NCBI GenBank assembly: GCA_003990765.1
Contig: RBNJ01000151.1
Span: 1-39,138, forward strand
Origin: Jimgerdemannia flammicorona
Taxonomy: Eukaryota
Length of the DNA stretch: 39,138 bases
Direction: 5' to 3'
In this document: positions 5,101-39,138 of the stretch, piece by piece
Layout of the letters: each line of letters starts with the position of its first letter
How positions within the stretch are numbered: the first letter of the stretch is position 1
Notes under the pieces: model-generated
Told to the model about the DNA's origin: nothing
Database searches by the model: none
What the model saw: only the letters and a program-made list of their open reading frames with translations
Made by a program: the position numbers and the translations under genes

Positions 5101-5101
5101 T

Positions 5102-5579
5102 TGTGATAGTATAGCCGAATTAAGAAGAAGGAAATAGGGAATAGATACTTGATCGCATCCAGTCCCAAAGTAGTATAGCCTTATAGTTAGTAGTCCTCGA
5201 TTTCAACATTGTCTAAATTCTTAGATATTGTCTAAATTCTTAGACATTATCCAAATCGAATGTCTCGATTTAGTATAGCATTTAGACATTGTCCAAATAT
5301 TTTGACAAAGTCCAAATGACTCATCTATTACTTAGTCACCCTCTCATAGCTAGCAAACTTGTATAAATAACCTAATATCTTCGAGTGAATAAACCTCAGA
5401 TTGAAATAGTTCAAAGCAAAGAGATAGCAAAGGAACTAGTAAGCCTGTGGGCAGATACACTTCGAACTCACCCACCCTTCCCTACAACTTCAAGAAGACT
5501 CTGTGAGAGTCAGAACGGTCAAGTTTTCAAGATACAGAAATCTGACATACTTTCAAGAGTAAGCATCTGCTACGTTACA
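5102..5579 (+). repeat. 3' LTR of element 1 (478 bp)
   Basis: TGTGATAGTA...TACGTTACA ends, TATAAATA near 5362, AATAAA at 5388; similarity to the copy at 38931 starts exactly at the TG. Confidence 0.85.
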
Positions 5580-5886
5580 ATATAGATAATTGTAGAGTTG
5601 TTCTTATTTATGGATTTTTTTTTAATAACTATCTAAGAATAGTATTAAAAAAGTAGACAGCTTATATTTTATTTACAATCTATTATTATTGACTATATTT
5701 TACTTCTATAGTATTTAGGAAGAATTTCCAGTCTTATAGTAAATACTTCAAGATCTTCTTTTCTATTATTATAGAATTATAGATTCTTAAACTTAATTCT
5801 GGCTTTAGTAATATAGGCAGAGCTACAGAACTATTGAATAATTAGCTTCTTTAGATCTATAGTAGCTGAGTAGACTTTATAGTTAG

Positions 5887-7937
5887 TATAAGAGGGTTAC
5901 TTTTTAGGGTAACCATTACATAGTTCTGGAAGAGTTTTTGGAAGTTCTGGGTATTCTGGAAGACTGTTTTCTTATGGTCAAGATCAATTTTGTATGGAGT
6001 ACGTCCTCTACGCTTATTGATTTCAAGATCAGGTTGATATCTCAACCAAAGTCCTTTTTTGGACTAGTTCTGGATGTTCAGGATTTTCCATATTTCAAGA
6101 AGTTCAAGAAACTAAGACCAGCTTAGTTGAATTGGCGTATTGCTGCAGACAATACCCAATTAGGCAATTTCGTGATGGGGTTAGGAGTAGGACCTAACAG
6201 GAAGCAGATTTACTTAAGAGTGGTTTGTGGGTTATAGAATAGGTTTATTTGCTATTCATGATATTGCTATACTAGGAGTATTTGTGTGAAGAGATATTGT
6301 GGGGAGGTATTCAGGAATGTTTGAGTCTGAGATTCTGAGGTCTGGGGGAGGGGATATTTATACTAGTAAGGGGCTATCTGAACTATACTAGATATGGATG
6401 TAGCACTAAGTGCCTTGCTGAGTCGGAATGCAGTCACATAGTACAAGTGTGATCTAATATATCAAGAGATCATCTGCCTGCTGAGTCAGTTCACAGTCAC
6501 GTCGTACAAGGCTAATCTAACTATATTATGACTACTAGGCTATTTATGGGTTTTAGGCGCTGTCTGGGTAATCTTCGATGATATCACCATTGATTGCATC
6601 ATCTCTGATGAAGTAGTTGTCTAGGAATAATGGTTCGCGGATTACTTCTCCTTGTTTGCTGAGGTAATAATACATTGGAACTTCGTCTCTGTCCCACAGG
6701 ATAGCATCGTCTGTCTCGTATGCTGGATAAGGTATTGGTGGGCAAAGGATGGGTGTATTGTCTTCACTTTCATTGGATTCACTATCTGCATACCTTCTAT
6801 AGGTTACAGCACTATGAGTCGCAGGGTTATAGTAAGCTGGTGGCTGTGGTTCATGTCGCTCATACTCAGGTAGTAGAGGGGTTGGTTTGATCTCGAGGGT
6901 TGTCTGGAGGTACAGGTTGTATTCTCCAGTCTCTTCATTGTAGTTGAAGTAATCGGGGGTAAATGCAGGTTGGTATTCATGCCAGTGGTCATTGTCCCAA
7001 TAAGTCTCGTATGCTGTTATGAATTGTTGTAAGTTCATTGATAAGGTTGGCAGAGTGATCAGGGTTGGCAGAGATCCTTGGCTAGAGGTCATGTCAGCAT
7101 CAGAGGGATCATTGTCTTCTGCTTCATCTTCATCAAAGTGGATTATATCGTAGATGTCCTTCATGGCATATCCAACTTGGGGCATTTGCAGGATATGATC
7201 ATTGGGGTGTGGGAAGGTTCTGTCTGTGGTTTCGACATACTTGAGGTACTTGTGATTGAGTTCTTGTATCATGTCATCGATTTGGCCATAGGACAGGGTA
7301 GCAACCATTTTACTGGTAGTAACTCGGAGGCAGGGAATAATGGTACTGTACTCATAGAAGAGTACTCGATGTTTGCAGGCAATGAGCTTCTGGTGTTGAG
7401 ACATCTGGATAAGTCTGTATCGTAGTGGTGATTGACTATATCTTCCAGGAGGCGGCTGATCTGATAGTAGCTTGAGATTTGTCTGATTCGGTGGGCCTCG
7501 CTAAGCATGTTCAGGGCATTCCATCGGGCTTCCACAAAGTAGAGGGGTATCAGACTATGGATATTCATGAGGGGCAGAGGGGGTGTGGCTTGGTTGACAA
7601 TAGTATTCCAAATGTCAGCATGGATACGGTTGTAGATCTCAGTGGTCATGTTTGTATATTTGGAAGTTGTGTTTGTTGTTTGTTTTGGTTCTCTGATTCA
7701 ACATGTCTCGGTGCTCAGTATATATGCATTTGGTCCTGATTGGTAAGATTCCGTTTGTGTAATTCTTGTGTTCTGTGACTTCGTATTGACTCAACTTTGT
7801 GCACTGTGACTTTGGTTTGACTCAGCTTCGTGATCAAGCAGGTGATTTCCAGTTTTGTTCAGAGGTCATGTGTGATTTCAGTGGCTTGTTCAGAGGGTGA
7901 TGTATAATTTCAGTGGCCTGGAGGTTGTGCGCTTACA
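5887..7937 (-). repeat. 3' LTR of element 2 (2051 bp)
   Basis: Colinear with 14172-16265; preceded on the minus strand by the PPT; TATAAATA at 6362-6355 and AATAAA at 6249-6244. Confidence 0.95.
6553..7649 (-). pseudogene. LTR (U3)-encoded orphan protein, ~365 aa, with a 1-bp deletion near 7410 in this copy
   Basis: The 126-aa ORF (from 7649) and the 283-aa ORF (from 7404) join in frame when the extra base seen in the other LTR is restored. Confidence 0.8.
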
Positions 7938-7938
7938 A

Positions 7939-7950
7939 CTCTCCCCTTCT
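7939..7950 (-). other. polypurine tract of element 2
   Basis: AGAAGGGGAGAG immediately before the 3' LTR on the minus strand. Confidence 0.85.
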
Positions 7951-8094
7951 TAGCTTTCGACATCCTCATCAGGGCCTTCTAATTTTGTTCCGCTGAGTTC
8001 TTGGTTTGGTTTGCAATAATTATAATATTTGGGAGGATAATATATAGTGTATATGGATAGGTGCAGAATATTTGGTTCTAGTTGTTCAAGGAAT

Positions 8095-8250
8095 TATATT
8101 CCTGAACTAGGTCAGTAGCATTCTGGAGATTGGTCTTGGGTTCTCAGATTGCATCGTGGATCAGATAACCTTTCCATTTGACAAGGTACTCAGGGTGGTT
8201 CTTGTTACTATGTTTGTTGTAGATTTGTTCAACTTCATACTCTTCTTGGT
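8095..8250 (-). other. integrase C-terminal chromodomain
   Basis: EEYEVEQIYNKH...EYLVKWKGYLIHDAI*EPKTNLQNA. Confidence 0.9.
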
Positions 8251-11200
8251 CATTAATGATGACAGGTGCAGGTGGTTTGGTGGTCCGGTTTGGAAATAGC
8301 TCATCATCATTCTCATTGTATCACTTGAGACATTGAACATTAAAGACTGGGTGAATCTTAATGGTGTCTGGTAGCGCCAGTTTGTAGGAGGTTGGAGAGA
8401 CTTGTGCAATAACTTCAAATGGTTCAATGAACTTGCTATTCAGCTTTGTAGATGGTCTGTGCTTGAGGTTGTCAACTCGGTATCCTCTGATATCTAGTAG
8501 GACTTTTTCTCCAATATCAAAAGTTTCTTCTCAGCAGTATTGGTTAACATACTGTAACTGTTGTTCTTGAGCTCGTGATAGATTTTCCATTGCAATCTGG
8601 CTTAGATTCCGCATTCGGAGTAGGAATTCTTCAACAGCTTCGACTGTAGAGAGTTCTTCAGTGGTCCGGATAAGTGTCAAAGGGGTGTTTGGGTTTTGTC
8701 CAGTATTAGCGAAGAATGGAGTCATTCCAAGAGAGACTTGCTTGCTATTGTTGTAGGCAAACTCAACTGTGATGAGGTGTTCATGCCAATCATCTTGTCT
8801 GTAGGAAACATAGTTCCTTAGCATTTGTTCCAGAGTTCAGTTCATTCTTTCAGTTTGGCCATCAGTTTCTGGGTAAAAGGCTGTGGATAGTGCAAGTTTT
8901 GTTCCAAGGTGTGCATGGAGGGCTTTCCAAAAGTGGCTGGTGAATTTCGGATCTCGGTCACTAACAATGATCTTAGGAAGACCATGATAGCAGAAGATGT
9001 TGTCAAACAAGAGTGTGGCTATGTCTGGTGCTGTTGCAGTAGTAGTAGTAGGCACAAAGTGGGCTTGTTTGCTGAGATAGTCCACAAAGACAACAATTGC
9101 ATCTTTCCTGTTCTTGGTTTGGGGTAGTTGTACAATGGAGTCTATAGAGGTTTGTTCCCAATTTGTAGATGGTACTGGGATAGGGTGGAGTGAGCCGGGT
9201 TTTGCTAGTGTTGAGGACTTGTTTTGTTGGCAGGCATCACAGGAAGTGATATAGATTTTGAGCTGATCTGTCATGTGGGGCCAATAGAAGTTTCGGGAGA
9301 TAACTTCATAGCATTTGTCAAATCCTAAATGTCCAGCTGTAGGGGCATCATGACATTCAAATAGGATAGTCCTTCAGAGGTCTTGGTTGTTTGGGACATA
9401 CAATCTGTTCTTGTAGTAGATAGTATTGTCCTTGAGTTGGTATTGATTGTACCGGGTATGCTTGTCAGCATCATCATTGTTCAGGATTTCTTGGAGTGCT
9501 TGAGCTTCCTTATCATCAACATATGCTGCAATGATTTGTTCCATGATAGTGTTGGTAACCAAGGTCAGAGTTTGGATAACCTCTTCGATTGGTGGTCTGG
9601 AGATTGCATTGGCAACAATATTTTCCTTGCCACAGCGGTACTGGATTTCGTAGTCAAAGTTGGTAAGGACTTTCATCCATCTGGCTTGCTTTCGAGAAAG
9701 GGTAGCCTATATCTTGATGTTGACTAGTGACTTGTGGTCAGTCAATACAGTGAAGTGTGCTCCTTCTAGATATGGTCACCATTTGATCAGAGTGTCTACG
9801 ATGGCTAGCATTTCCTTCTTGTGAGTTACATAGTTGATTTCGGTATCATTGAACTTGCGGGAGTGATAGGCCACAGGGTGTCCTTCTTGCATGAGCACTG
9901 CTCTAAGAGCTAGGTCAGAGGCATCAGTAGTGACTTCATATAGTAGGGCAGAGTTTGCTGCTTGAAGTACTAGAGTGGTTATCAAGGCATCCTTCAGTGC
10001 TTGAAAGGTGGTATCTTGCTTGGATCCCCAATTTACAAGATTGTTGAAGTCTTTCTCTTATTTCATGGTCTAGAGTTGTTCTTGTTTCTTGCTGTGCTTG
10101 GTCATTTGGGTGAGAGCAGTAGTGATTTTAGCAAAGTTGGCAACAAATTGCCTGTAATAGTTTGCTAATCTCAGAAATGACTGGAGGTCTTTCAGCTTCT
10201 TGGGTCTGGGCCAATCTTTGATTGCAGAGATTTTGCTGGGGTCCACTTTGATTCCATTTAGAGTGACAATGTGTCCAAGGAATTGAATTTCTTTTAGGAG
10301 AAATTCGCATTTGCTGAGTTTTGCAAAGAGTCAGTTTTCTCAGAGTTTCAGTAGTACTAGTTCAAGATGTTCAAGATGTTCTTCCAGGGTTTTGCTGAAG
10401 ACTAGGATGTCGTCAATGTAGACAACAATGAATTTGTCTAGGTATGGGTGCAGAATAGTATTCATCAGTGCCTGGAAGGTTGCTGGAGCATTAGTTAAGC
10501 CAAAGAGCATGACCAGGAACTCGAAGTATCCATAGCGAGTTTGGAAAGCTGTCTTGTAGATGTCTTCTTCTTTCATAGTAATTTGTCAGTAACCATTTTG
10601 CAGATCAAAAGAGCTCATAAATTGTGGGTTGGTGAGCCTATCAAATATTTCATCAATCCTCGGTAGTGGGCAATAGTTCTTGATGGTCTGCTCATTGAGA
10701 TCACAGTAGTCAATGCACATTTGCAGGTCTCCTCCTTTTTTGACAATAAAGAGGACTGGTGCACCATAGGGTGATATGCTGGGTCTGATGAATCCTTGTT
10801 CTAGGAGTTTGTCAATTTCCTTCTTAAGTGCATCAATTTCTCTCAGAGATATGTGGTAGATTGACTTGAAGGCTGGTTTGGCATCTGAGATAGTCTTGAT
10901 TGCATAGTCTACTGCTCATTTAGGAGATAGGCCTTTCGGGAGTTTCTTTGGGAATATGTCTCGGAATTTCTGGAGTAGTGGTCTGACATGGCTATCAACT
11001 TTGGAAAAATCTTCTTCAGAGTTCTCGGGTTCTCCTTTGGATGGTCAGATGGAGATGGCGAAGAGAGGCATTTCTTGGCCAATTTTTTGAGTTGTAGCTT
11101 GTTGATGTGGGTAATCTTTGGTCCAGGGTCACTAGAGTTGAGTGAGTCCTTTTCGCCTTATAGTTTGAAGTTGTGGTGTCCTTTCTTGATGGTCAGAGAA

Positions 11201-11736
11201 TGGTTTATCCAATCAATCATAGGGTTCTCTTACTTTAACCATGGAGTCCCAAGGATGATTTCATTGTCAGGAAGTGGTGTGATTTGGAGGGTAACATATA
11301 CTCGGTAGTTACCAATTTGGAAGGGTAGATTGCGGACTTCTTCACTAATAACATGTGAGGTTCCATCAGCTGTAGCAACTGCTTGAGTTTGCTGTACTGG
11401 AGAGGTGAAGACCTTGAGTCTGTTGGCTGTCTCTTTATTGATAAAGTTGCTTGAGGCACCACTGTCTATCATAATCTTGACAGGTGCTCCATTGACAAAA
11501 GCCTTAAGGGTGAGCAGTTTGTCTGATCCAATGGTGGTGATTTCAGTTATAAGAGCCTTTCTTCTGTTGGTTCTTCTTTGAGTCAGTTCGTTGATACAAG
11601 AGAAGCAATCATCAATTATTCGGGAAGAGTACATTCTAATACCATGAGGGCATCGGCCACTTGGTACATATCCATCTTCAATCTTCTTGTAGAATTGTTC
11701 TTCCTTACTCATGGTAGGTTGGGCTGGGGCCTTGTT

Positions 11737-12140
11737 TGATGAGCCAAATCCTTTAGATTCTCGGATGGTGGGTAGTAGTTTAGGGACTTCCTTGACTGTC
11801 AGGGTTGACTCAATTTTTTCGAATAGGATCTGGGTGATACAGAAGCCCATAGGGATCTTGAAGGGTGTCCAACTGTGGTTTCGAATGAGGACAATGATTT
11901 CGCCTGTGTAATCTTTGTCAATAACTCCTTCTTCTACTGAGAGTCCTTTCAATGCTAGACTGCTGTGACAGCATATTCTTCCAATATGTTCTTTGGGGAT
12001 TTGGATACTGATTCCCGTGTAGACTTGTTTGACTTCTTGGTTAGAAACTGTAGCTTCTTTGGCTGTATACAGGTCATATCCAGCTGCTTTTTGACTTCCT
12101 TTGGTTGGGGCCTTAGCAGTTTGTCTTAACTTGACAATAT
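11737..12140 (-). other. dUTPase domain between the zinc knuckle and protease
   Basis: AAGYDLY, HSSLA, GVIDKDYTGEI, ITQILF and RESKGFGSS. Confidence 0.92.
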
Positions 12141-14158
12141 CTAGTATTCTGGTGGTCAGGTTGTTGAGGTAGTGAAGAGTGGTAACAGTTGCTCATGTTG
12201 CTGTTTGGGGTTTTCGGTTAGGGCAGGCACTGGCCATATATCCTGTCTTTTGGCAATAGAAATATGCTCCACTTCTTCGAAGTTCATTCCTTTTGCCTTC
12301 AGTAAGTTTCTTGAAGGTACTGGGCTAGATGGGTTCAGGATTTCTGGGTGTCCAAGAGGTGGATGTGGAGGGAGCTCGAGATGCTTCATGCTTGGGTTTT
12401 TCTTTCTTGGTCCAAGTCCTTTCCTTGTTGTTAAATTGTCTTTAGGGCAGAATTGGTCCAGCTGTTAGGATTCACTTGAGCATGGTCTTGATTCTTGCCA
12501 GGCACCATTGTTGGTGATCACAACCAACTGGGCGGCCTTGTTCTCAGATTTTTCTAGTAAGCCATTCAGGCAGGGCATCAAATAAATGGTCTGCTCTTGT
12601 ACCATTTCATGCTTCATCATTGGTAATATATCCTAGGCCAATAGTGTTCAGGAGTGACTCGAGTTTTGTACAGAAGGTTTCAAATTCTTCCTTGCCATGT
12701 ACATCAAATTTGAGGTTGCGGAGCTTTACTCGAGATTCAGCAATCATTGTTTTACTGCGATATTGAGCAATCATGAGTTGTTTGAGTCCAGGGGCTGCAG
12801 GATGTATTTCATATCCTGGGGCATTGTTTGCTGCATTCTGAGCAACTACTGCAGATCGAGTATCCCATATGAGGGGTTTTTCAGAAAGGGTTCACCACCA
12901 TTCTTCAGCAGGTCCTCAGAAGAATGTAACAACTTGGCAGACATAGGCTGTAGTAGTAGCAAAGAGTTGTTCCAGGGTGTGATCTTGATTATTTGTCAGA
13001 ACACAGTCAGCAACTCGCTCATTAGTCCATTGATTGGCTTTGAAGTTGGTGTCAACTACACTAATGAAGCTTTGGACTTCTTATACAGTGCCATTGAAGG
13101 TAGATAGGCTCAGATTTTTGGTAGGTCGGGTCTGTTCAGCTAAGGCAGTGATAGTTGCTGCCATTATAGCTACTTGGGCTGTGAGATCAAGAATCTGTTG
13201 GTTCACTATGTTGATTGCTGGAGGCAGTTGGACTGCTGGTAGTGGTGTTACTGGTACTACTTGAGGTACTGGTGCAGAGTGTGATGGGGTTCTTTGGGTC
13301 TGTGTAAGTTGCTGGAGTAGTAGTTGTAGGTCTGGAGTGAGGGCTTTATAGATAGCTGTTTGTTGCTATGTAGGTATATTCTGTCCTGATGGACATGTGT
13401 CTCCTTCAGTAGTGTATCTGGGATCGAATTCGGTGAGATACTCCTCCTCTTCTTCGGTTTGGTCCCCGTGTAATTGGGTTTGCTCAGCGTCAAAGTAGAC
13501 AGAATCAGTTGTATATCTGATTTCAGACAGACTTAATTCAAAGTCAAGTTCAGGTTCGGTATTGGTTTCAGATTCAGGTAGGGCTGTAGTAGGGCCTGCT
13601 TCAGGTTTGGGATCAGGTAGTTGATGAAGAGTTTTTCTTGCTTCTTCTTTAAGAATATGGCGGGCCTTGCTGTTCTGGAATCGGTAGTATAATGCAGTCT
13701 TGGTCCTGGTATGGTGAAAGTCAGTAGAGTTGAGCAACTTGGCTACAGAGGCTTGGGCTTTGTGAGGAACTAAGGCTAGAAAGACTGCTGCTGGTTGTCC
13801 TAGGTCGCTCAGATTTGTGGAGCTGACAAAACTCTTGTTGAGAAGAGTAAAGAAGGCTTCAATAAGACCTTCTTCATCTTGACTTGCTGGGTGTAGTGCA
13901 AGGAGTTCGGTGAATAGGGTTTTACCTATTTGCTGGTTTAACCTGAGTACTTCTTTCTTTGAATGAAGTTTGTCCCACTTGTTGCAGGTGTGGAGGTCAA
14001 ATTGTCCTTGTACGTTAGGTTCAATTCTCTCCAGATTGTCAGATGGTTCAGGATAAATTCCAGTTCAGAGGTTGGGCTTTATACCAACTTGTAGGAATTC
14101 TTGGAAGAGTTTGTAGCAGGGTGAGGAAGTGTCTTGAAGCAGAATTGGATTGTAAACT

Positions 14159-14168
14159 GCTGCTACCA
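14159..14168 (-). other. primer-binding site, probably initiator tRNA-Met
   Basis: TGGTAGCAGC, 3 nt downstream of the 5' LTR end; complementary to a ...GCUACCA tRNA 3' end. Confidence 0.7.
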
Positions 14169-14171
14169 AGT

Positions 14172-16265
14172 TGTAAGAGGGTTACTTTTTAGAGTAACCA
14201 TTACATAGTTCTAGAAGGGTTTTCTGGAAGTTCTGAGTATTCTGGAAGACTGTTTTCTTATGGTCAAGATCAATTTCATATGGAGTACGTCCTCTATGCT
14301 TATTGATTTCAAGATCAGGTTGACGTCTCAACCAAAGTCCTTTTTTGGACTAGTTCTGGATATTCAGAATTTTCCATATTTCAGGAAGTTCAAGAAACTA
14401 AGACCAGCTTAGTTGAATTGGCGTATCGCTGCAGACAATACCCAATTAGGCAATTTCGTGACAGGGTTAGGAGTAGGACCTAACAGGAAGCGGATTTACT
14501 TAAGAGTGGTTTGTGGGTTATGGAATAGGTTTATTTGCTATTCATGATATTGCTATACTAGGAGTATTTGTATGAAGGGATATTGTGGGGAGGTATTCAG
14601 GAATGTTCTTATATGTTCGAGTCTGAGATTCTGAGGTCTGGAGGAGGGGGTATTTATACTAGTGAGGGGCTATCTGGACTATGCTAGATATGGATATAGC
14701 ACTAAGTGCCTTGCTGAGTTGGAATGCAGTTACGTAGTACAAGTGTGATCTGACATATCAAGAGATCGTCTGCCTGCTGAGTCAGTTCACAGTCACATTG
14801 TACAAGGCTAATCTAACTATATTATGACTGCTAGGCTATTAATGGGTTTTAGGCACTGTCTGGGTAATCTTCGATAACATCACCATCGATTGCATCATCT
14901 CTGATGAAGTAGTCATCTAGGAATAATGGTTTATGGATTACTTCTCCTTGTTTGCTAAGATAATAATACATTGGAACTTCGTCTCCGTCCCACAGAATAG
15001 CATTGTCTGTCTCGTATGCTGGATAAGGTGTTGGTGGGTAAAAGATGGGTGTATTGTCTTCACTTTCATCAGATTCACTGTCTGCATACTTTCTGTAGGT
15101 TATAGCACTATGAGTCACAGGGTTATAGTAAGCTGGTGGCTGTGGTTCATGTCGCTCATACTCAGGTGGTGGAGTGGTTGGTTCGATCTCGAGGATTGTC
15201 TGGAGGTACAGATTGTGTTCTTCAGTCTCTTCATTGTAGTTGAAGTAATCGGGAGTGAATGTAGGTTGGTATTCGTGCCAGTGGTCATTGTCCCAATAAG
15301 TCTCATATGCTGTTATGAACTTTTGTAAGTTCATTGGCAAGGTTGGCGGAGTGATCAGGGTTGATAGAGATCCTTGGCTAGAGGTCATGTTAGCATCAGA
15401 GGGATCATTGTCTTCTGCTTCATCTTCATCGAAGTGGATTATATTGTAGATATCCTTCATGGCATATCCAACTTGGGGCATTTGCAGGATATGATCATTG
15501 GGGTGTGGGAAGGTTCTGTCTGTGGTTTCGACATACTTGAGGTACTTGTGATTGAGTTCTTGTATCATGTCATCGATTTGGCCATAGGACAGGGTAGTAA
15601 CCATTTCGCTGATAGTAACTCGGAGACAGGGAATAATGGTACTGTACTCATAGAAGAGTTCTCGATGTTTGCGGGTGATGAGCTTCTGGTGTTGAGACAT
15701 CTAGGTAATGTCTGTATCGTGGTGGTAATTGACCATGTCTTCCAGGAGGCGGCCGATCTGGTAATAGCTTGAGATTTGTCTGATTCAGTGGGCCTCGCTA
15801 AGCATGTTCAGGGCGTTCCATCGGGCTTTCACAAAGTAGAGGGGTGCCAGACTATGGATATTCATGAGGGGCAGAGGGGGTATGGCTCAGTTGACAATGG
15901 CATTCTAAATGTTAGCGCGGATATGATTGTAGATCTCAGTGGTCATGTTTGTGTATTTGGAAGTTGTATTTGTTGTTTGTTTTGGTTCTCTGATTCGACA
16001 CATCTCGATACTCAGTATATATGCATTTGGTCCTGATTGGTAAGATTCCGTTTATATAATTCTTGTGTTCTGTGACTTTGTATTGACTCAGCTTTGTGTG
16101 CTGTGACTTTGGTTTGACTCAGCTTTGTGTGCTGTAACTTTGGTTTGACTCAGCTTCATGATCAAGCAGGTAATTTCCAGTTTTGTTCAGAGGTTGCATG
16201 TGATTTCAGTGGCTTATTCAGAGGGTGACGTATAATTTCAGTGGTCTGGAGGTTGTATACTTACA
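14172..16265 (-). repeat. 5' LTR of element 2 (2094 bp)
   Basis: Direct repeat of 5887-7937 with one extra 31-bp unit; followed by the PBS. Confidence 0.95.
14849..15946 (-). pseudogene. second copy of the LTR-encoded ~365-aa ORF (two premature TAG codons)
   Basis: 1098 nt = 366 codons from ATG 15946; TAG at 15907-15905 (TGG in the other LTR) and 15703-15701 (CAG in the other LTR). Confidence 0.8.
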
Positions 16266-16270
16266 GTTAG

Positions 16271-23161: not shown

Positions 23162-24551
23162 TTACAACTTAGCCTGGCCCCCAGGATCTGCGACGGCAGG
23201 TGCACACACCTGCCCGCGCCACAGGCTCCTCACCACCCTGCCGCCGAGCACGTGGCGGTCGATGATGGCCTCCACGTGGCACGGACGCACGTTGCCATAC
23301 ATGTGGCCGCCGAGCGTGGGTGTGTGGATGATAACGTTGCCGGCGAATTTGTGGCCTAGTCGGTAGGGAAGAGTGTGAAAATATGATCGCGGTGCGGTGC
23401 TCAATAACGCTAATCATAATTGTAAATATGGAAACATGGATATAAGTCAAATACCTACCGCCAACGTGACTCGTCCCAAACACCTCAACTACCTTTCCCC
23501 CCGTGAGTTCGCGAGCCCTTTCCGCGCCCTCCCCCTCATCCTCTACAACCTCGGTACCACGGCAACCCAAAACCTCCTTCTTCGCCAACACCCTCTTAAA
23601 TTCCTGGATAATTAGCGGCCCGAGCACGCCGCACCTCTTATCGCGGCGGGTGTGCGTGCACACGAGGACGACGGCATGGGTCGTGGGGCGCAAGTCACGG
23701 TGCGGGAGGAACGCGGGGGCTTGCGATGTAGACGGGTTCAGGCTGCTCATCAGGATGGAGAAAGTGGAAGGCTTGGACGGGATGGTTAGGTGCGGCTCGA
23801 TATCGTAATAGAGTTTGAAGTCTGGGAAGAGGAGAATATCCGACGTGGGCCAGGTGGTGGTTGTGGGGTTGCGTTCTGACCGGATACGGTCGCACGCCGT
23901 GACAAAGAGGTTGTCGCCCGAATTTGTGGCTTCATGGCTTGATGCCATCTGAGAGTCCAAACCTTCCTTGCTCCCCACGCTCGACGTCTTGAACTCATCA
24001 ACCAGCGCCTTTATCGCGTTCTCGTCACTTTTCTTCGAATGAATAATGACCTCTCCCTCCCCCCTCCTCGTGGCCTCCCCCTCTCCCCTCTCGTGCTCAC
24101 TAAGCATCCACTCCCTCTTCACCTTCTGCACCGCCTCAATGACTCCTCCCTCGGCGGCTTCGACCTTCGCGCGCATCCACTCAGGCGCGTCCTCTCCGAC
24201 GCACGCGACGAGATGACGGCGGTAAGTCTTGGAAATCGCCATCGCGTCCGCTAGGTCGATCATGGCCCCGATCACTCCGGGGATCGGGTGCCGTTTGCAA
24301 GGGATGAAACCGTTGGGCTTGGCGGCAGAACAGCTCGCGGCATCACAGCAAGGGGAGAAGCGATCTAATGGAGGGAGATCGATATCGAAGGGCGGGAGGG
24401 TTTGGGGATTGGAGGTGGCGGTGTGTGTGGCCATGGAGAATGATGGATGTAGTATTTCGGGTAATGCAAAAAAACGTGTTTTTGACGGACTTGTGCAAAG
24501 AAGGGGACGCGGGAGGAGCCTGGCAAAGGGCATGATTCTTGTAGCAGCCAT
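23162..24551 (-). CDS. sucrase/ferredoxin-like (Apd1/Aim32 family) [2Fe-2S] protein; intron 23458-23356
   Basis: LVCTHTRRDKRCG (C-x8-C), SHVGG|HKFAGNVII, MYGNVRP and LWRG. Confidence 0.9.
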
Positions 24552-31361: not shown

Positions 31362-34046
31362 ATGCAGCCCGTAGACTTCAAATCAGAGCAACCCGTGCGC
31401 ATCGGTTGCTACTCCGCCTTCTGGGGCGATTCCGTCGCGGCCGCCGAGCAGCTGGTTAAAAAGGAGGGCAAGAACCTCGACTATCTGGTCGCTGATTACC
31501 TCGCAGGTATGTCCGATACCGGCCAAGGACGGGTCGGGTTGTCGTGTCTTCTCGTCTTATTTCATCAACGAGTCTCTTCACATTCCACATCTGCACAGAG
31601 GTGACTATGGGCCTCCTTGCCCGCCGACGCACTTCGTCCTCTAAGGACCTCGGCGGCGCCGGCGCCGGCGGCTATGTAGCCGAATTCATCACCCTCGTCC
31701 TCTCGCGCCTCCTCCCTGACATCGCAAAGCATGGCATCAAAATCGTTACCAACGCTGGCGGCTTAGACCCGCTCGCCTGCAAAGATGCCATCGAATCCGC
31801 CCTCCGCGACGCCGGCATCCCTGACGGCCAAATTATCGTCGCTGCCGTCTCGGGCGACGACCTCCTAGGCGAGACCTTCACGCGCCTCCGATCTTCAAAT
31901 CAGGTCCTTGGCTTTAGCGGCGTAGACCATGGCGGCGTCCCGACGTCGTCTCCCCTTGCCGACTCTCTTCCGCCAGATTCCAAACCACCCGTCTCGCTCA
32001 ACGCGTACCTAGGAGCGATTCCCATCGCTCGCGCGCTCTCGGGTGGCGCGCACATCGTCGTGACTGGTCGCGTGGTTGACTCTGCGCTGGTTCTCGGACC
32101 ACTGATGCACGAGTATGGTTGGGACCCTAGCAAGGATTTCGACCGGCTTGCGGCGGGGTCGCTGGCGGGACATATTATCGAGTGCGGATGCCAAGCGACG
32201 GGCGGGAATTTCACAGATTGGGAGGCGAGCGCATTCTCGCCGTATGGTGGGTGGTCGAATATGGGGTACCCCGTTGTCGAATGTTTCGAGGATGGGAGTT
32301 TCGTTGTGACAAAACCAAAAGGAACGGGTGGGCTCGTTACGCCGGCCACGGTGGGGGAACAGATGGTGTATGAGGTGCTTGATCCGGGCGCCTACTTGTT
32401 ACCGGACGTGGTGTTGGATTTGAGATATGTGAAGTTGAGCCAGATCGGGAAGGATCGCGTGCTCGTGACGGGGGCGAGGGGAAGGAGGCCGACGAAGCTG
32501 GTCAAGTGCTCCGGGGTGTATGTCGATGGATATAAGATGTCGGGAGAGCTGGTGGTTGGTGGTATGGATGCTTATCAGAAGGTATAACTTTTATTTGAGT
32601 AATATTATTTGCATTTACATTGTCAGATGTGTTCAAGAATCGCCTCCGGATGAATTTTAACCACGACTTTCTTTCAATACCAAACTCCCTCCCAGTCCGT
32701 CGCCCTCGGTCAAGCCATCATTACTCGCTCTCAAAGCATGATCAAGCGCCTTGGCATGCCAAATTTCCGCGGCATTAACATCGAGCCACTGGGCGCAGAA
32801 TATATCTACGGGTAAGGCGCAGCACTCACGTTTCCCGCTCATTGCTGCCACCATCTTCATTCTGCGACTGATATATCATACCCGCCGATACGCACGCATG
32901 CAGCCCGAACTCAAGAGCCCGTGCGACGCGCGAGGTCGTGTTGAGGATCACGGCGCACCACGACAACAAGAAGGCTCTGGGTGTGTTTGGGATGGAGGTG
33001 GCGCCGGTGAGTGGGTGAATTGGAGTTGATGGCAGAGATCGAGGATAATCGCATTAGTCACCGATTGTTTCTTAGCCGGTACATTCGTCGTTGTCGATTC
33101 GTCTAGGCTGCCACGTGCATGGCGCCAGGTATCACAGGTTTGTACGGACGTGACGCTTTTGTGATACCTATTCTTTTCGCCATATCAGCGCATCTACTTT
33201 AAGTCCGTGCTCACATATTCTCCAATCTCACCCACCACCAGGCGGCGGCTCCGGCCGACCCCACCCCTCTCCTAACCTAGTTCACTTCTCCTGCCTGGTC
33301 CCAAAGTCCGCCGTCCCTGCCCGGTTGACCATTGGCGCCAGCGAGACCTGCGTCGTCGACTGGGAGGTCGAGGGTGCCGAGGGCCAACACGTTCCGCCAC
33401 CGCTTGAGCCCGAGGTCGGGGCTCCGCAAATCATCAGCGGTACCATGACCAATAGAGTGCCGCTCATCAAGGTCGCATACGGGAGGAGCGGGGATAAGGG
33501 TGATTGCTGCAATATTGGTATGCGTGGTTTTCGTCCGGCTATTCAATATTGGGTAAAATATGGTGGAGTAGGGCGAGGCTTCGCATTCGATATCTCTTAT
33601 GTCTTTTTGTGTCTCCAGGCATCATCGCCCGCAACCCCAAATACTACCCCTACCTCATACAAGCACTCACGGAACAGGTGAATACTCTGCTTTCAAACAG
33701 TCTTGTATGCCCATCGTTTTCGTTCTAACACCTAAACCCCGTTCCATCAGGTCGTCGCAGACTACATGGCGCATCTGTGCGAGGGCACCGTCAAGCGGTA
33801 CGAGCTCCCCGGTTCGAACGCGTTGAACTTCGTATTAACGAGGAGTTTGGGTACGTGTGTCCCATGTTTTGGGCCGATTGGGGTTCCTTTGTCAACGCGT
33901 CAATAACTACGTTTGGTTTACTTATATCAGGCGGCGGCGGCCTCAGCTCCCTCCGGGTCGATCGCCAGGGCAAGACGTACGCACAGATGCTGCTCTCCGG
34001 AATTATGGTCGAGATACCCGCGGAGATGGTAGCGGCCAAGCTATGA
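31362..34046 (+). CDS. AtuA / DUF1446 acyclic terpene utilization family protein (9 exons)
   Basis: [62 protein letters not shown] and [12 protein letters not shown]. Confidence 0.92.
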
Positions 34047-38409: not shown

Positions 38410-38930
38410 ATCCTCCTTTTTATTTTTGGTACTGTTCTCAAAGTGCATCCATCCATGCTTCTTATATAGATGCTTATTCCTCTGATATTGTATATATACA
38501 AGATAAGGTCCTTCCCATTTGGGTCCTAGTTTGGTGATGAATCATACTTCTCAAACAAGGACTTGATATTCAATCTTGATCTCCTGATCTTTCTATTTTT
38601 GATTTCTGTTTTTTTTTTAGCCTTAATTATCTGAGCTCAAGTCTGGTTTTGCAACTGTTCTGCCTTATCAAGAAGTTCTCTGAGGTTCTTGTGATCAACA
38701 GTCCTGATTTTCTTAGTAAATATTATTTTGAATAATTTTTATTTAGTAGAGACAGTAGGGGTATTTCAAATTTTCTATAGAATCTCAGATAAGCAGAGAT
38801 CTTACATAGTTGATAAAATTGACTTAAGAAAGTTCTTTCTTAATGGTCTGATTTATTCATTCTGTCATTTTATTAATTTAGAGATAATGGTATATAGTTC
38901 TTTTTAGGTAAATCTTATAATAGTATATCT
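38410..38930 (-). mobile_element. decayed Ty3/Gypsy integrase C-terminus relic
   Basis: KLGPKWEGPYLV (~38535-38497), followed by purine tract AAAAAGGAGGA and TGTTATG. Confidence 0.65.
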
Positions 38931-39138
38931 TGTGATGGTACAGCCAGATTTGGAAGAAGGAAATAGGGAATAGACACTTGATCGCACCCATTCCCAAAGT
39001 AGTATAGCATTATAGTTAGCAGTCCTCGATTTCGACATTGTCTAATTTCTTAGACATTGTCTAAATTTTAGACATTATCCAAATCGAATACCCCGATTTA
39101 GTATAGCATTTAGACATTGTCCAAATGTTTCGACAAAG
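38931..39138 (+). repeat. second element-1-family LTR (truncated by window end)
   Basis: Closely matches 5102-5310; starts with TGTGAT and has no upstream PPT, so it is a 5' or solo LTR. Confidence 0.9.

Follow-up and report, generated by a model that had tools for sequence, protein, structure and literature searches.

Can a retrotransposon's long terminal repeat (LTR) harbor a complete protein-coding gene? LTRs of retrotransposons are treated as purely regulatory, genome annotation masks them, and surveys for additional open reading frames (ORFs) cover the internal region only. The question is raised by contig RBNJ01000151.1 of Jimgerdemannia flammicorona (assembly GCA_003990765.1), which was analysed over a stretch of 39,138 nucleotides, hereafter termed the window. 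Positions 5887-16265 are occupied by a minus-strand LTR retrotransposon of which both ends are present and the coding region has decayed, and each of its two LTRs contains a 283-codon frame. A first-pass annotation of this DNA, made from the sequence alone, had proposed that the LTR encodes an orphan protein of about 365 amino acids in its U3 region. We consider it fairly probable that the frame represents a real, LTR-borne protein-coding accessory gene of a fungal chromovirus family, a possible function of which may be suggested from its context.

Coding signature of a frame shared by both LTRs

The frame of the 3′ LTR (P0001; 6553-7404, minus strand) is intact and ends at a TAA stop codon (6555-6553), with the stop-to-stop interval of 6553-7500 spanning 315 codons. 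Its counterpart in the 5′ LTR (P0002; 14849-15700, minus strand) is likewise intact, and the translated product shares 88% amino acid identity with P0001. Both products begin with the residues MSQHQ, and no further P0001-like frame can be observed in the window beyond the two LTRs. The coordinates and the LTR alignment bear out the first-pass view that the frame has the same orientation as pol and falls entirely within the LTR.

The length of the 283-codon frame is beyond chance. When the LTR was shuffled 2000 times with its dinucleotides preserved, the longest frame on the sense strand had a mean of 84 codons and a maximum of 200, and 500 such shuffles read on both strands gave a maximum of 199 codons. 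This bears on the possibility that the frame is a non-functional relic, one that stays open only through a T/G-poor sense strand and the insufficient age of the copies and that contributes nothing to the element: with composition preserved, no shuffle gave a frame above 200 codons, which argues against it. The codon usage, which is frame-specific and pol-like, argues in the same direction. When a codon model derived from the pol of this same element (1156 in-frame codons) is applied, the two LTR copies score +0.24 and +0.25 bits per codon in frame, as against -0.31 to -0.35 in the other sense frames and -0.08 to -0.49 in the antisense frames, and both LTR segments outside the ORF score negative in all three frames. 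The third-position G content of the LTR frame (0.12) is similar to that of pol, compared to 0.31 in a host gene. A further explanation holds that the frame is a host gene fragment, passively captured through transduction in one element lineage and without a role. Transduction by LTR retrotransposons is known, being described in passages of PMC7264820, but the composition of the frame is wholly pol-like and unlike that of the neighbouring host genes.

Exhaustive protein searches, covering 5.8 billion clusters and 1.84 billion representatives (about 15 billion proteins overall), yielded P0003 and P0004 as the sole accepted relatives. The protein search gave one match among 141 candidates and, for shorter proteins, one among seven, while P0004 as query retrieved only itself among six. 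A HMMER search against the 1.84 billion representatives returned five proteins at E ≤ 0.001, three of which (P0005 to P0007; E 8e-7 to 6e-6) were rejected as spurious, being tandem-repeat or bacterial surface proteins with scores summed over 6-10 repeats. The window's own frame products are not in the protein collection. The searches of these approximately 15 billion proteins gave no homolog of the frame outside these copies, which argues against a recent capture from the host.

The more distant relative, P0003 (247 amino acids), aligns from Met33 to the last-but-one residue with 163 identities over 250 columns (65%) and two 2-residue gaps, and ends at the same place as the window frame. For comparison with neutral expectation, the window coding sequence was mutated randomly to the same protein identity as P0003 in simulations with transition fractions of 0.33, 0.5, 0.67 and 0.95 (3000 runs each; 12000 in total). 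The proportion of P0003 replacements that are BLOSUM62-positive is 43/83 (0.518), and 47/87 against the other LTR copy, whereas the simulations gave fractions of 0.29-0.33 (standard deviation 0.05) with a highest value of 0.524 among the 12000, and just 0.5-2.7% of the simulated sequences were free of stops. The frame carries a coding signature and is conserved across diverged copies, and it looks like a real coding sequence that has been kept in them.

Upstream of the body lies an N-terminal extension. In the 3′ LTR it comprises 79 codons from the ATG at 7649 (7413-7649, minus strand) and is separated from the body at 7412/7413, where one base is missing when compared with the 5′ LTR, in agreement with the deletion that the first-pass annotation had placed near 7410. 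The 82 codons of the extension in the 5′ LTR (15701-15946, minus strand) are in register with the body and contain four in-frame stops (TAG 15907, TGA 15889, TGA 15787 and TAG 15703), where two TAG codons alone had been reported. As such, the earlier statement that each LTR breaks the ORF differently is accurate for the first 82 codons and does not extend to the 283-codon body, which is intact in both. The four stops were gained in 25 substitutions, against 0.86 expected (P = 0.005). The codon model scores the extension at +0.09 in frame versus -0.20 off frame. The database protein P0004 (128 amino acids; MTTEIY...DTDITQ-MSQHQ...) reads unbroken from the extension into the MSQHQKLI of the body, showing that the long form (82 + 283 = 365 residues) occurs naturally. 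The junction within the long frame that had been assembled from the two LTRs is read through in this natural protein, and no combining by hand is needed. The 5′ LTR and P0004 both have the base that is absent at 7412, as does a single contig from each of the sequencing runs X1, X3 and X13.

Copies elsewhere, divergence within the element and the predicted product

The LTR is a high-copy repeat elsewhere, with a partial match in 17 of the 19 listed sequencing runs (best share 0.23). When four runs (X1, X3, X13 and X17) were compared with the LTR at 80% likeness, 3863 matching contigs were found in X1 and 458, 313 and 425 in the other three. By identity, the X1 contigs comprise 405 at 99% or above, 1124 at 95-99%, 1752 at 90-95% and 582 below 90%. 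Contigs from X3, X13 and X17 cease to match at position 5889, and one X13 contig exits at the TG of 7937 into an unrelated flank, so that in those runs the LTR forms one unit whose ends are the same. In X3, one contig (depth 2) joins 7888 to 6256, placing an LTR truncated just before the AATAAA against a fresh LTR start, which might reflect a nested insertion, a tandem LTR or a chimera made in assembly.

By occurrence, rather than by the intactness of each copy, the frame is found in both LTRs, in the two database proteins and, at 80-99% identity, in contigs of all four runs. P0003 and P0004 are encoded on contigs of 998 and 1180 nt, respectively, both forming singleton clusters, and P0004 is 85-87% identical to the window copies. 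Scans of metagenome_contigs, viral_contigs and genome_contigs revealed no related loci. The frame is not a host fragment confined to this one copy, an outcome the first-pass annotation had allowed for: it is found in copies diverged by 15-35% and in four runs, its composition is that of pol, and the clusters and representatives searched hold no cellular homolog. Passive capture of a host gene appears very improbable on this evidence. Among the 40 listed of 567 run-variant rows, 14 fall within the frame, at codon positions 1/2/3 in the proportions 9/2/3; most of these are changes private to the window copy and are as such uninformative on selection. Gap counts in 32 listed contig pieces showed no clear split between frame and non-frame sequence and were not used.

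The two LTRs are 92.7% identical over 1956 aligned nucleotides, with 12 gap positions. Within the frame they differ at 57 of 852 positions, including 54 transitions, distributed 22/12/23 over codon positions 1/2/3, and the naive ratio of nonsynonymous to synonymous divergence (dN/dS) between the LTRs is 0.35. Across the LTRs, transitions account for 140 of the 144 substitutions and a neighbouring base differs as well in 29 of 144, for example CA versus TG. This pattern fits the decay of ancestral CpG, by methylation or deamination, and not random error. A run of 145 nt (7157-7301), corresponding to residues ~35-83, is without any difference between the LTRs (permutation P = 0.00015), and the same residues are also well conserved in P0003. 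Gene conversion, a cold spot for mutation (2 CpG) or constraint could each account for it.

The body of the predicted product has a mass of 33 kDa and an isoelectric point of 4.3, with 50 acidic versus 17 basic residues, 26 tyrosines and 24 prolines. It lacks a hydrophobic segment, the maximum 19-residue hydropathy being 0.6-1.0. No Pfam family was recognized, RAMP at E 0.21 being the only result at E values of up to 10; a PDB profile search gave no relative of solved structure (best E 0.65), and the ESM Atlas no usable match. The orphan status proposed initially is supported by these searches. AlphaFold predicts long helices over the ~130 residues with which the long form begins, whereas its model of the body is not confident anywhere. 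The product would be a soluble, very acidic, Tyr/Pro-rich protein with a predicted helical N-terminal part and without a known fold. Such an acidic composition, rich in aromatic residues, is typically seen in activation or adaptor regions. From composition and position, the protein might be a trans-acting helper of the element, for instance as an acidic adaptor or activator or by counteracting host silencing. As first readings of function we would take activation of the LTR, or interference with host silencing as a decoy or antagonist. A PPxY motif (PPAY, residue 188) is found in both LTR copies and was dropped from consideration, as it is absent in P0003.

A number of observations weigh against the interpretation as a gene. 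The LTR copies of this element differ neutrally, without sign of selection, as predicted after insertion: 23 of the differences are synonymous, compared with an expectation of 18.3 ± 3.4 once the observed transition bias is taken into account (P = 0.11), and the probability of both frames staying open by neutral decay is 0.21. Since post-insertion decay predicts such differences, they are uninformative either way on the active ancestor. The argument from the lack of stops in P0003 carries a sampling bias, as this protein is in the database because its frame is open; the conservative-replacement argument is unaffected by it. The differences from P0003 are not significantly clustered (P = 0.19). 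There are only two database relatives, both from contigs of ~1 kb without visible context. AlphaFold confidence, expressed as the predicted local distance difference test (pLDDT), is low, with values of 30.6 in the body and 53.3 over the 128 N-terminal residues. In X1, the joining base at 7412 accounts for a depth of only 2.3 of 479.4, and as almost all of the depth is without it, the split form may be the common one in at least one population, in which the 283-residue body, or the 251-residue core covered by P0003, may then be the functional unit. The relic explanation gains from the neutral LTR differences, the very small number of relatives, the failure to find a fold or family and the interruption of the N-terminal part in both LTRs. 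Set against these are not only the shuffles and the codon usage but also the 65%-identical P0003, which retains the frame, the stop position and conservative replacements, and we regard a relic as rather unlikely. A real accessory gene carried by the LTR is the reading we favour.

Position of the frame in the LTR and its possible expression

The frame begins 288 nt inside the LTR, beyond the polypurine tract (PPT) at 7939-7951. Its stop codon is located 191 nt upstream of TATAAATA (6355-6362, minus strand), a candidate promoter for the genomic RNA recognized by motif and kept in both LTRs, and TATAAATA in turn lies 113 nt upstream of an AATAAA (6244-6249, minus strand), the only one in the LTR and kept in the 5′ LTR, which is a candidate poly(A) signal. 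The earlier placement of the frame wholly upstream of both motifs is confirmed, and given TATAAATA as promoter the frame would lie in U3. Of the U3 label, the position inside the LTR upstream of the two motifs holds; the label itself is motif-based and is complicated by a candidate second promoter further upstream. This consists of a CCAAT (7743-7739) and a TATATA (7724-7719), together spanning 7719-7743 on the minus strand, recognized by motif and identical in the 5′ LTR. The 3′ LTR holds exactly two TATA[AT]A sequences, and the one at 7724 sits 75 nt upstream of the ATG at 7649, so that the frame could have its own promoter or could even lie within a very long R. Two TGAGTCA motifs, putative AP-1/Gcn4-type sites, are located at 7787-7824 (minus strand). 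The 5′ LTR alone has undergone a tandem duplication of 31 nt (near 16063-16156), which gives it a third.

If genomic transcription were to start at the upstream CCAAT/TATATA (~7690), the frame would be a real gene outside U3, lying in an R of ~1.4 kb as the first cistron before gag. One of only two TATA[AT]A motifs precedes the frame, with the CCAAT and the TGAGTCA repeats further upstream and all of these conserved in the 5′ LTR, and the data do not tell the two promoters apart. Such a transcript would, however, need to ignore the AATAAA of the 5′ LTR, 1.4 kb from the cap, and gag would require reinitiation after a 365-codon frame. Furthermore, a poly(A) signal ~110 nt from the TATA is the usual layout of retroelements, and it is the downstream TATAAATA that provides this spacing. 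We hold this arrangement to be decidedly unlikely and prefer the placement in U3.

Downstream of the PPT and upstream of the likely genomic promoter, a frame in U3 would be copied into both LTRs by reverse transcription, and each solo LTR would retain it. The long form would comprise ~365 residues, with conservation highest in the 283-residue body or in a core of 251 residues that begins at Met33. Besides the long-R layout, two expression layouts can be envisaged from the motifs. In layout (a), which is favoured, the CCAAT/TATATA promoter in the 5′ part of U3 would give rise to a monocistronic mRNA ending at the single AATAAA of the LTR, and each LTR would constitute a self-contained gene. In layout (b), placed second, the frame would be translated from a spliced subgenomic RNA representing the 3′ end of the genomic transcript; spliced 3′ subgenomic RNAs are described for the ORF3s of other retroelements in parts of PMC5408684 and PMC7264820. 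We infer the U3 assignment, the promoter and the function from motifs and context.

Among the 19 listed runs, none that contains LTR sequence is on record as RNA. For X13 and X17 an RNA origin is a guess: their contigs carry the termini of other inserted elements as loose ends, and the two runs are partly DNA-like. In the DNA run X1, the segment 6004-6306, which surrounds the AATAAA and the beginning of U5, is covered 2-3 times as deeply as the remainder of the LTR; in X13 and X17 the excess is 100-1000 times, with a sharp edge at 6306/6307. This drop in depth was set aside as a mark of the transcription start site, since the block is also raised in the DNA run; it may be a more widely shared or separately amplified module, or the 5′ part of a transcript. 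In X13 and X17, about 6610-6810 of the frame is without cover, and no reading was drawn from this gap.

The element, its surroundings and comparable systems

The LTRs were delimited by LTR alignment and boundary search. In the sense orientation, the 5′ LTR (14172-16265, minus strand; 2094 nt, TG...CA ends) runs from 16265 to 14172 and the 3′ LTR (5887-7937, minus strand; 2051 nt, TG...TA ends) from 7937 to 5887, the terminal TA of the latter being a single transition from CA. The element is flanked by a 5-bp target-site duplication, CTAAC, at 5882-5886 and 16266-16270. The PPT AAGAAGGGGAGAG (minus strand) is located one base ahead of the 3′ LTR, and a putative primer binding site (PBS) TGGTAGCAGCAG (14157-14168, minus strand) lies 3 nt past the 5′ LTR; one X3 contig runs beyond the LTR end into a string resembling TGGTAGCAGCAG. 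The internal region of ~6.2 kb contains a pol gene (8147-12192, minus strand; Pfam and frames) interrupted by stops and frameshifts. Its minus-strand Pfam domains, each of them interrupted, are in order a dUTPase with an aspartic protease (PR; 11230-12192), reverse transcriptase (RT; 10340-10585), RNase H (9776-10057), the zinc finger and core of integrase (IN; 8837-9373) with its SH3_Tf2-1 domain (8321-8530), and a chromodomain (PF00385; 8147-8320; E 4.1e-7; 30.3 bits versus a cutoff of 25.1). With its LTR ends, target duplication, PBS, PPT, PR-RT-RNase H-IN order and a chromodomain C-terminal to integrase, the element is a chromovirus, i.e. a Ty3/gypsy element with a chromodomain, that additionally carries a dUTPase. 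The first-pass designation as a chromovirus is upheld by the chromodomain (E 4e-7) together with the dUTPase, PR, RT, RNase H and IN matches. No Retrotrans_gag domain was detected by Pfam anywhere in the element; right after the PBS and upstream of a gag-like region, 13366-14064 (minus strand) form a 232-codon open stretch without an ATG or Pfam match.

A second gypsy-type element, truncated at its 5′ end, is located on the plus strand at 440-2587 and comprises PR (440-1138), dUTPase (1175-1804) and RT (1805-2587). Its dUTPase lies between PR and RT, whereas that of the element at 5887-16265 lies ahead of PR; a variable placement of dUTPase is described for Postia placenta in passages of PMC2864245. 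Direct repeats of 210 nt, 90% identical, at 5101-5310 and at the window end (38930-39138) are probably part of another repeat family. The element is followed by an AT-rich stretch (26% GC) at 16-18 kb, and the GC-richer right half of the window harbors host-type genes, namely a Suc_Fer-like gene (23169-24551, minus strand) and a member of the AtuA family (31544-32587, plus strand). These neighbours and the dUTPase fit a fungal host. Rfam and tRNA scans of the window found nothing.

Protein-coding frames within LTRs are known elsewhere chiefly from a small number of retroviruses. Among known systems, the nef of lentiviruses and the bet of foamy viruses have their starts in the internal region and extend over part of U3. 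As in the present element, an accessory coding sequence there extends into the 3′ LTR, whereas the entire frame described here lies beyond the PPT and has 288 nt of LTR sequence upstream of it. The LTR ORF (sag/naf) of mouse mammary tumour virus (MMTV) may be regarded as the closest functional analogue, a likeness by analogy and without sequence or architectural similarity. Like the present frame, sag is a complete sense frame of ~300 codons present in both LTRs; it lies in U3, where the present frame would probably lie as well. MMTV Sag is a membrane glycoprotein, in contrast to the present product, which has no hydrophobic segment, and Pfam and protein searches show no sequence similarity between them; moreover, the host here is probably a fungus and the element lacks env. 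The passages of PMC9412291 report an LTR promoter besides the main one for MMTV sag, as well as a dUTPase carried by MMTV, which the present element shares.

The extra ORFs described for LTR retrotransposons, namely plant aORFs (in passages of PMC7264820) and bdelloid ORF3s (in passages of PMC5408684), occupy the internal region, where they follow pol and precede the 3′ LTR. These are likewise family-specific extra sense frames 3′ of pol, usually orphan and without homologs outside elements, but the present frame is located inside the LTR, not in the internal region, and is therefore duplicated. According to the passages of PMC2864245 that were available, dUTPase is found in chromoviruses of basidiomycetes and one ascomycete, including PosPlaTy3 of Postia placenta and those of Phanerochaete. 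These are chromodomain-containing Ty3/gypsy elements like the present one, in which the dUTPase is at the N-terminus of pol; no LTR-borne frame is mentioned in the same passages, and a legend refers to an 'add. ORF' drawn for fungal chromoviruses. The literature covered, from which most subscription journals were missing, yielded no account of a non-retroviral LTR retrotransposon with a complete frame within its LTR, which is not proof of absence.

A bolder and more doubtful extension of our interpretation, which we put forward tentatively, is that each LTR of the family constitutes a self-contained gene, with enhancer-like repeats, a CCAAT/TATA, a 365-codon frame and the promoter and poly(A) signal of the element. 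Each insertion would then carry two copies and each solo LTR an expressible one, the product could act in trans family-wide, for instance by activating the LTR or working against host silencing, and it would be the first LTR/U3-encoded protein outside retroviruses. If true, solo LTRs, which are usually counted as dead, could still make protein, and gene dosage would scale with the number of LTRs. A fungal element would independently have come to house an accessory gene in U3 as retroviruses do, and the orphan protein would have a directly testable role in the contest between the element and its host.

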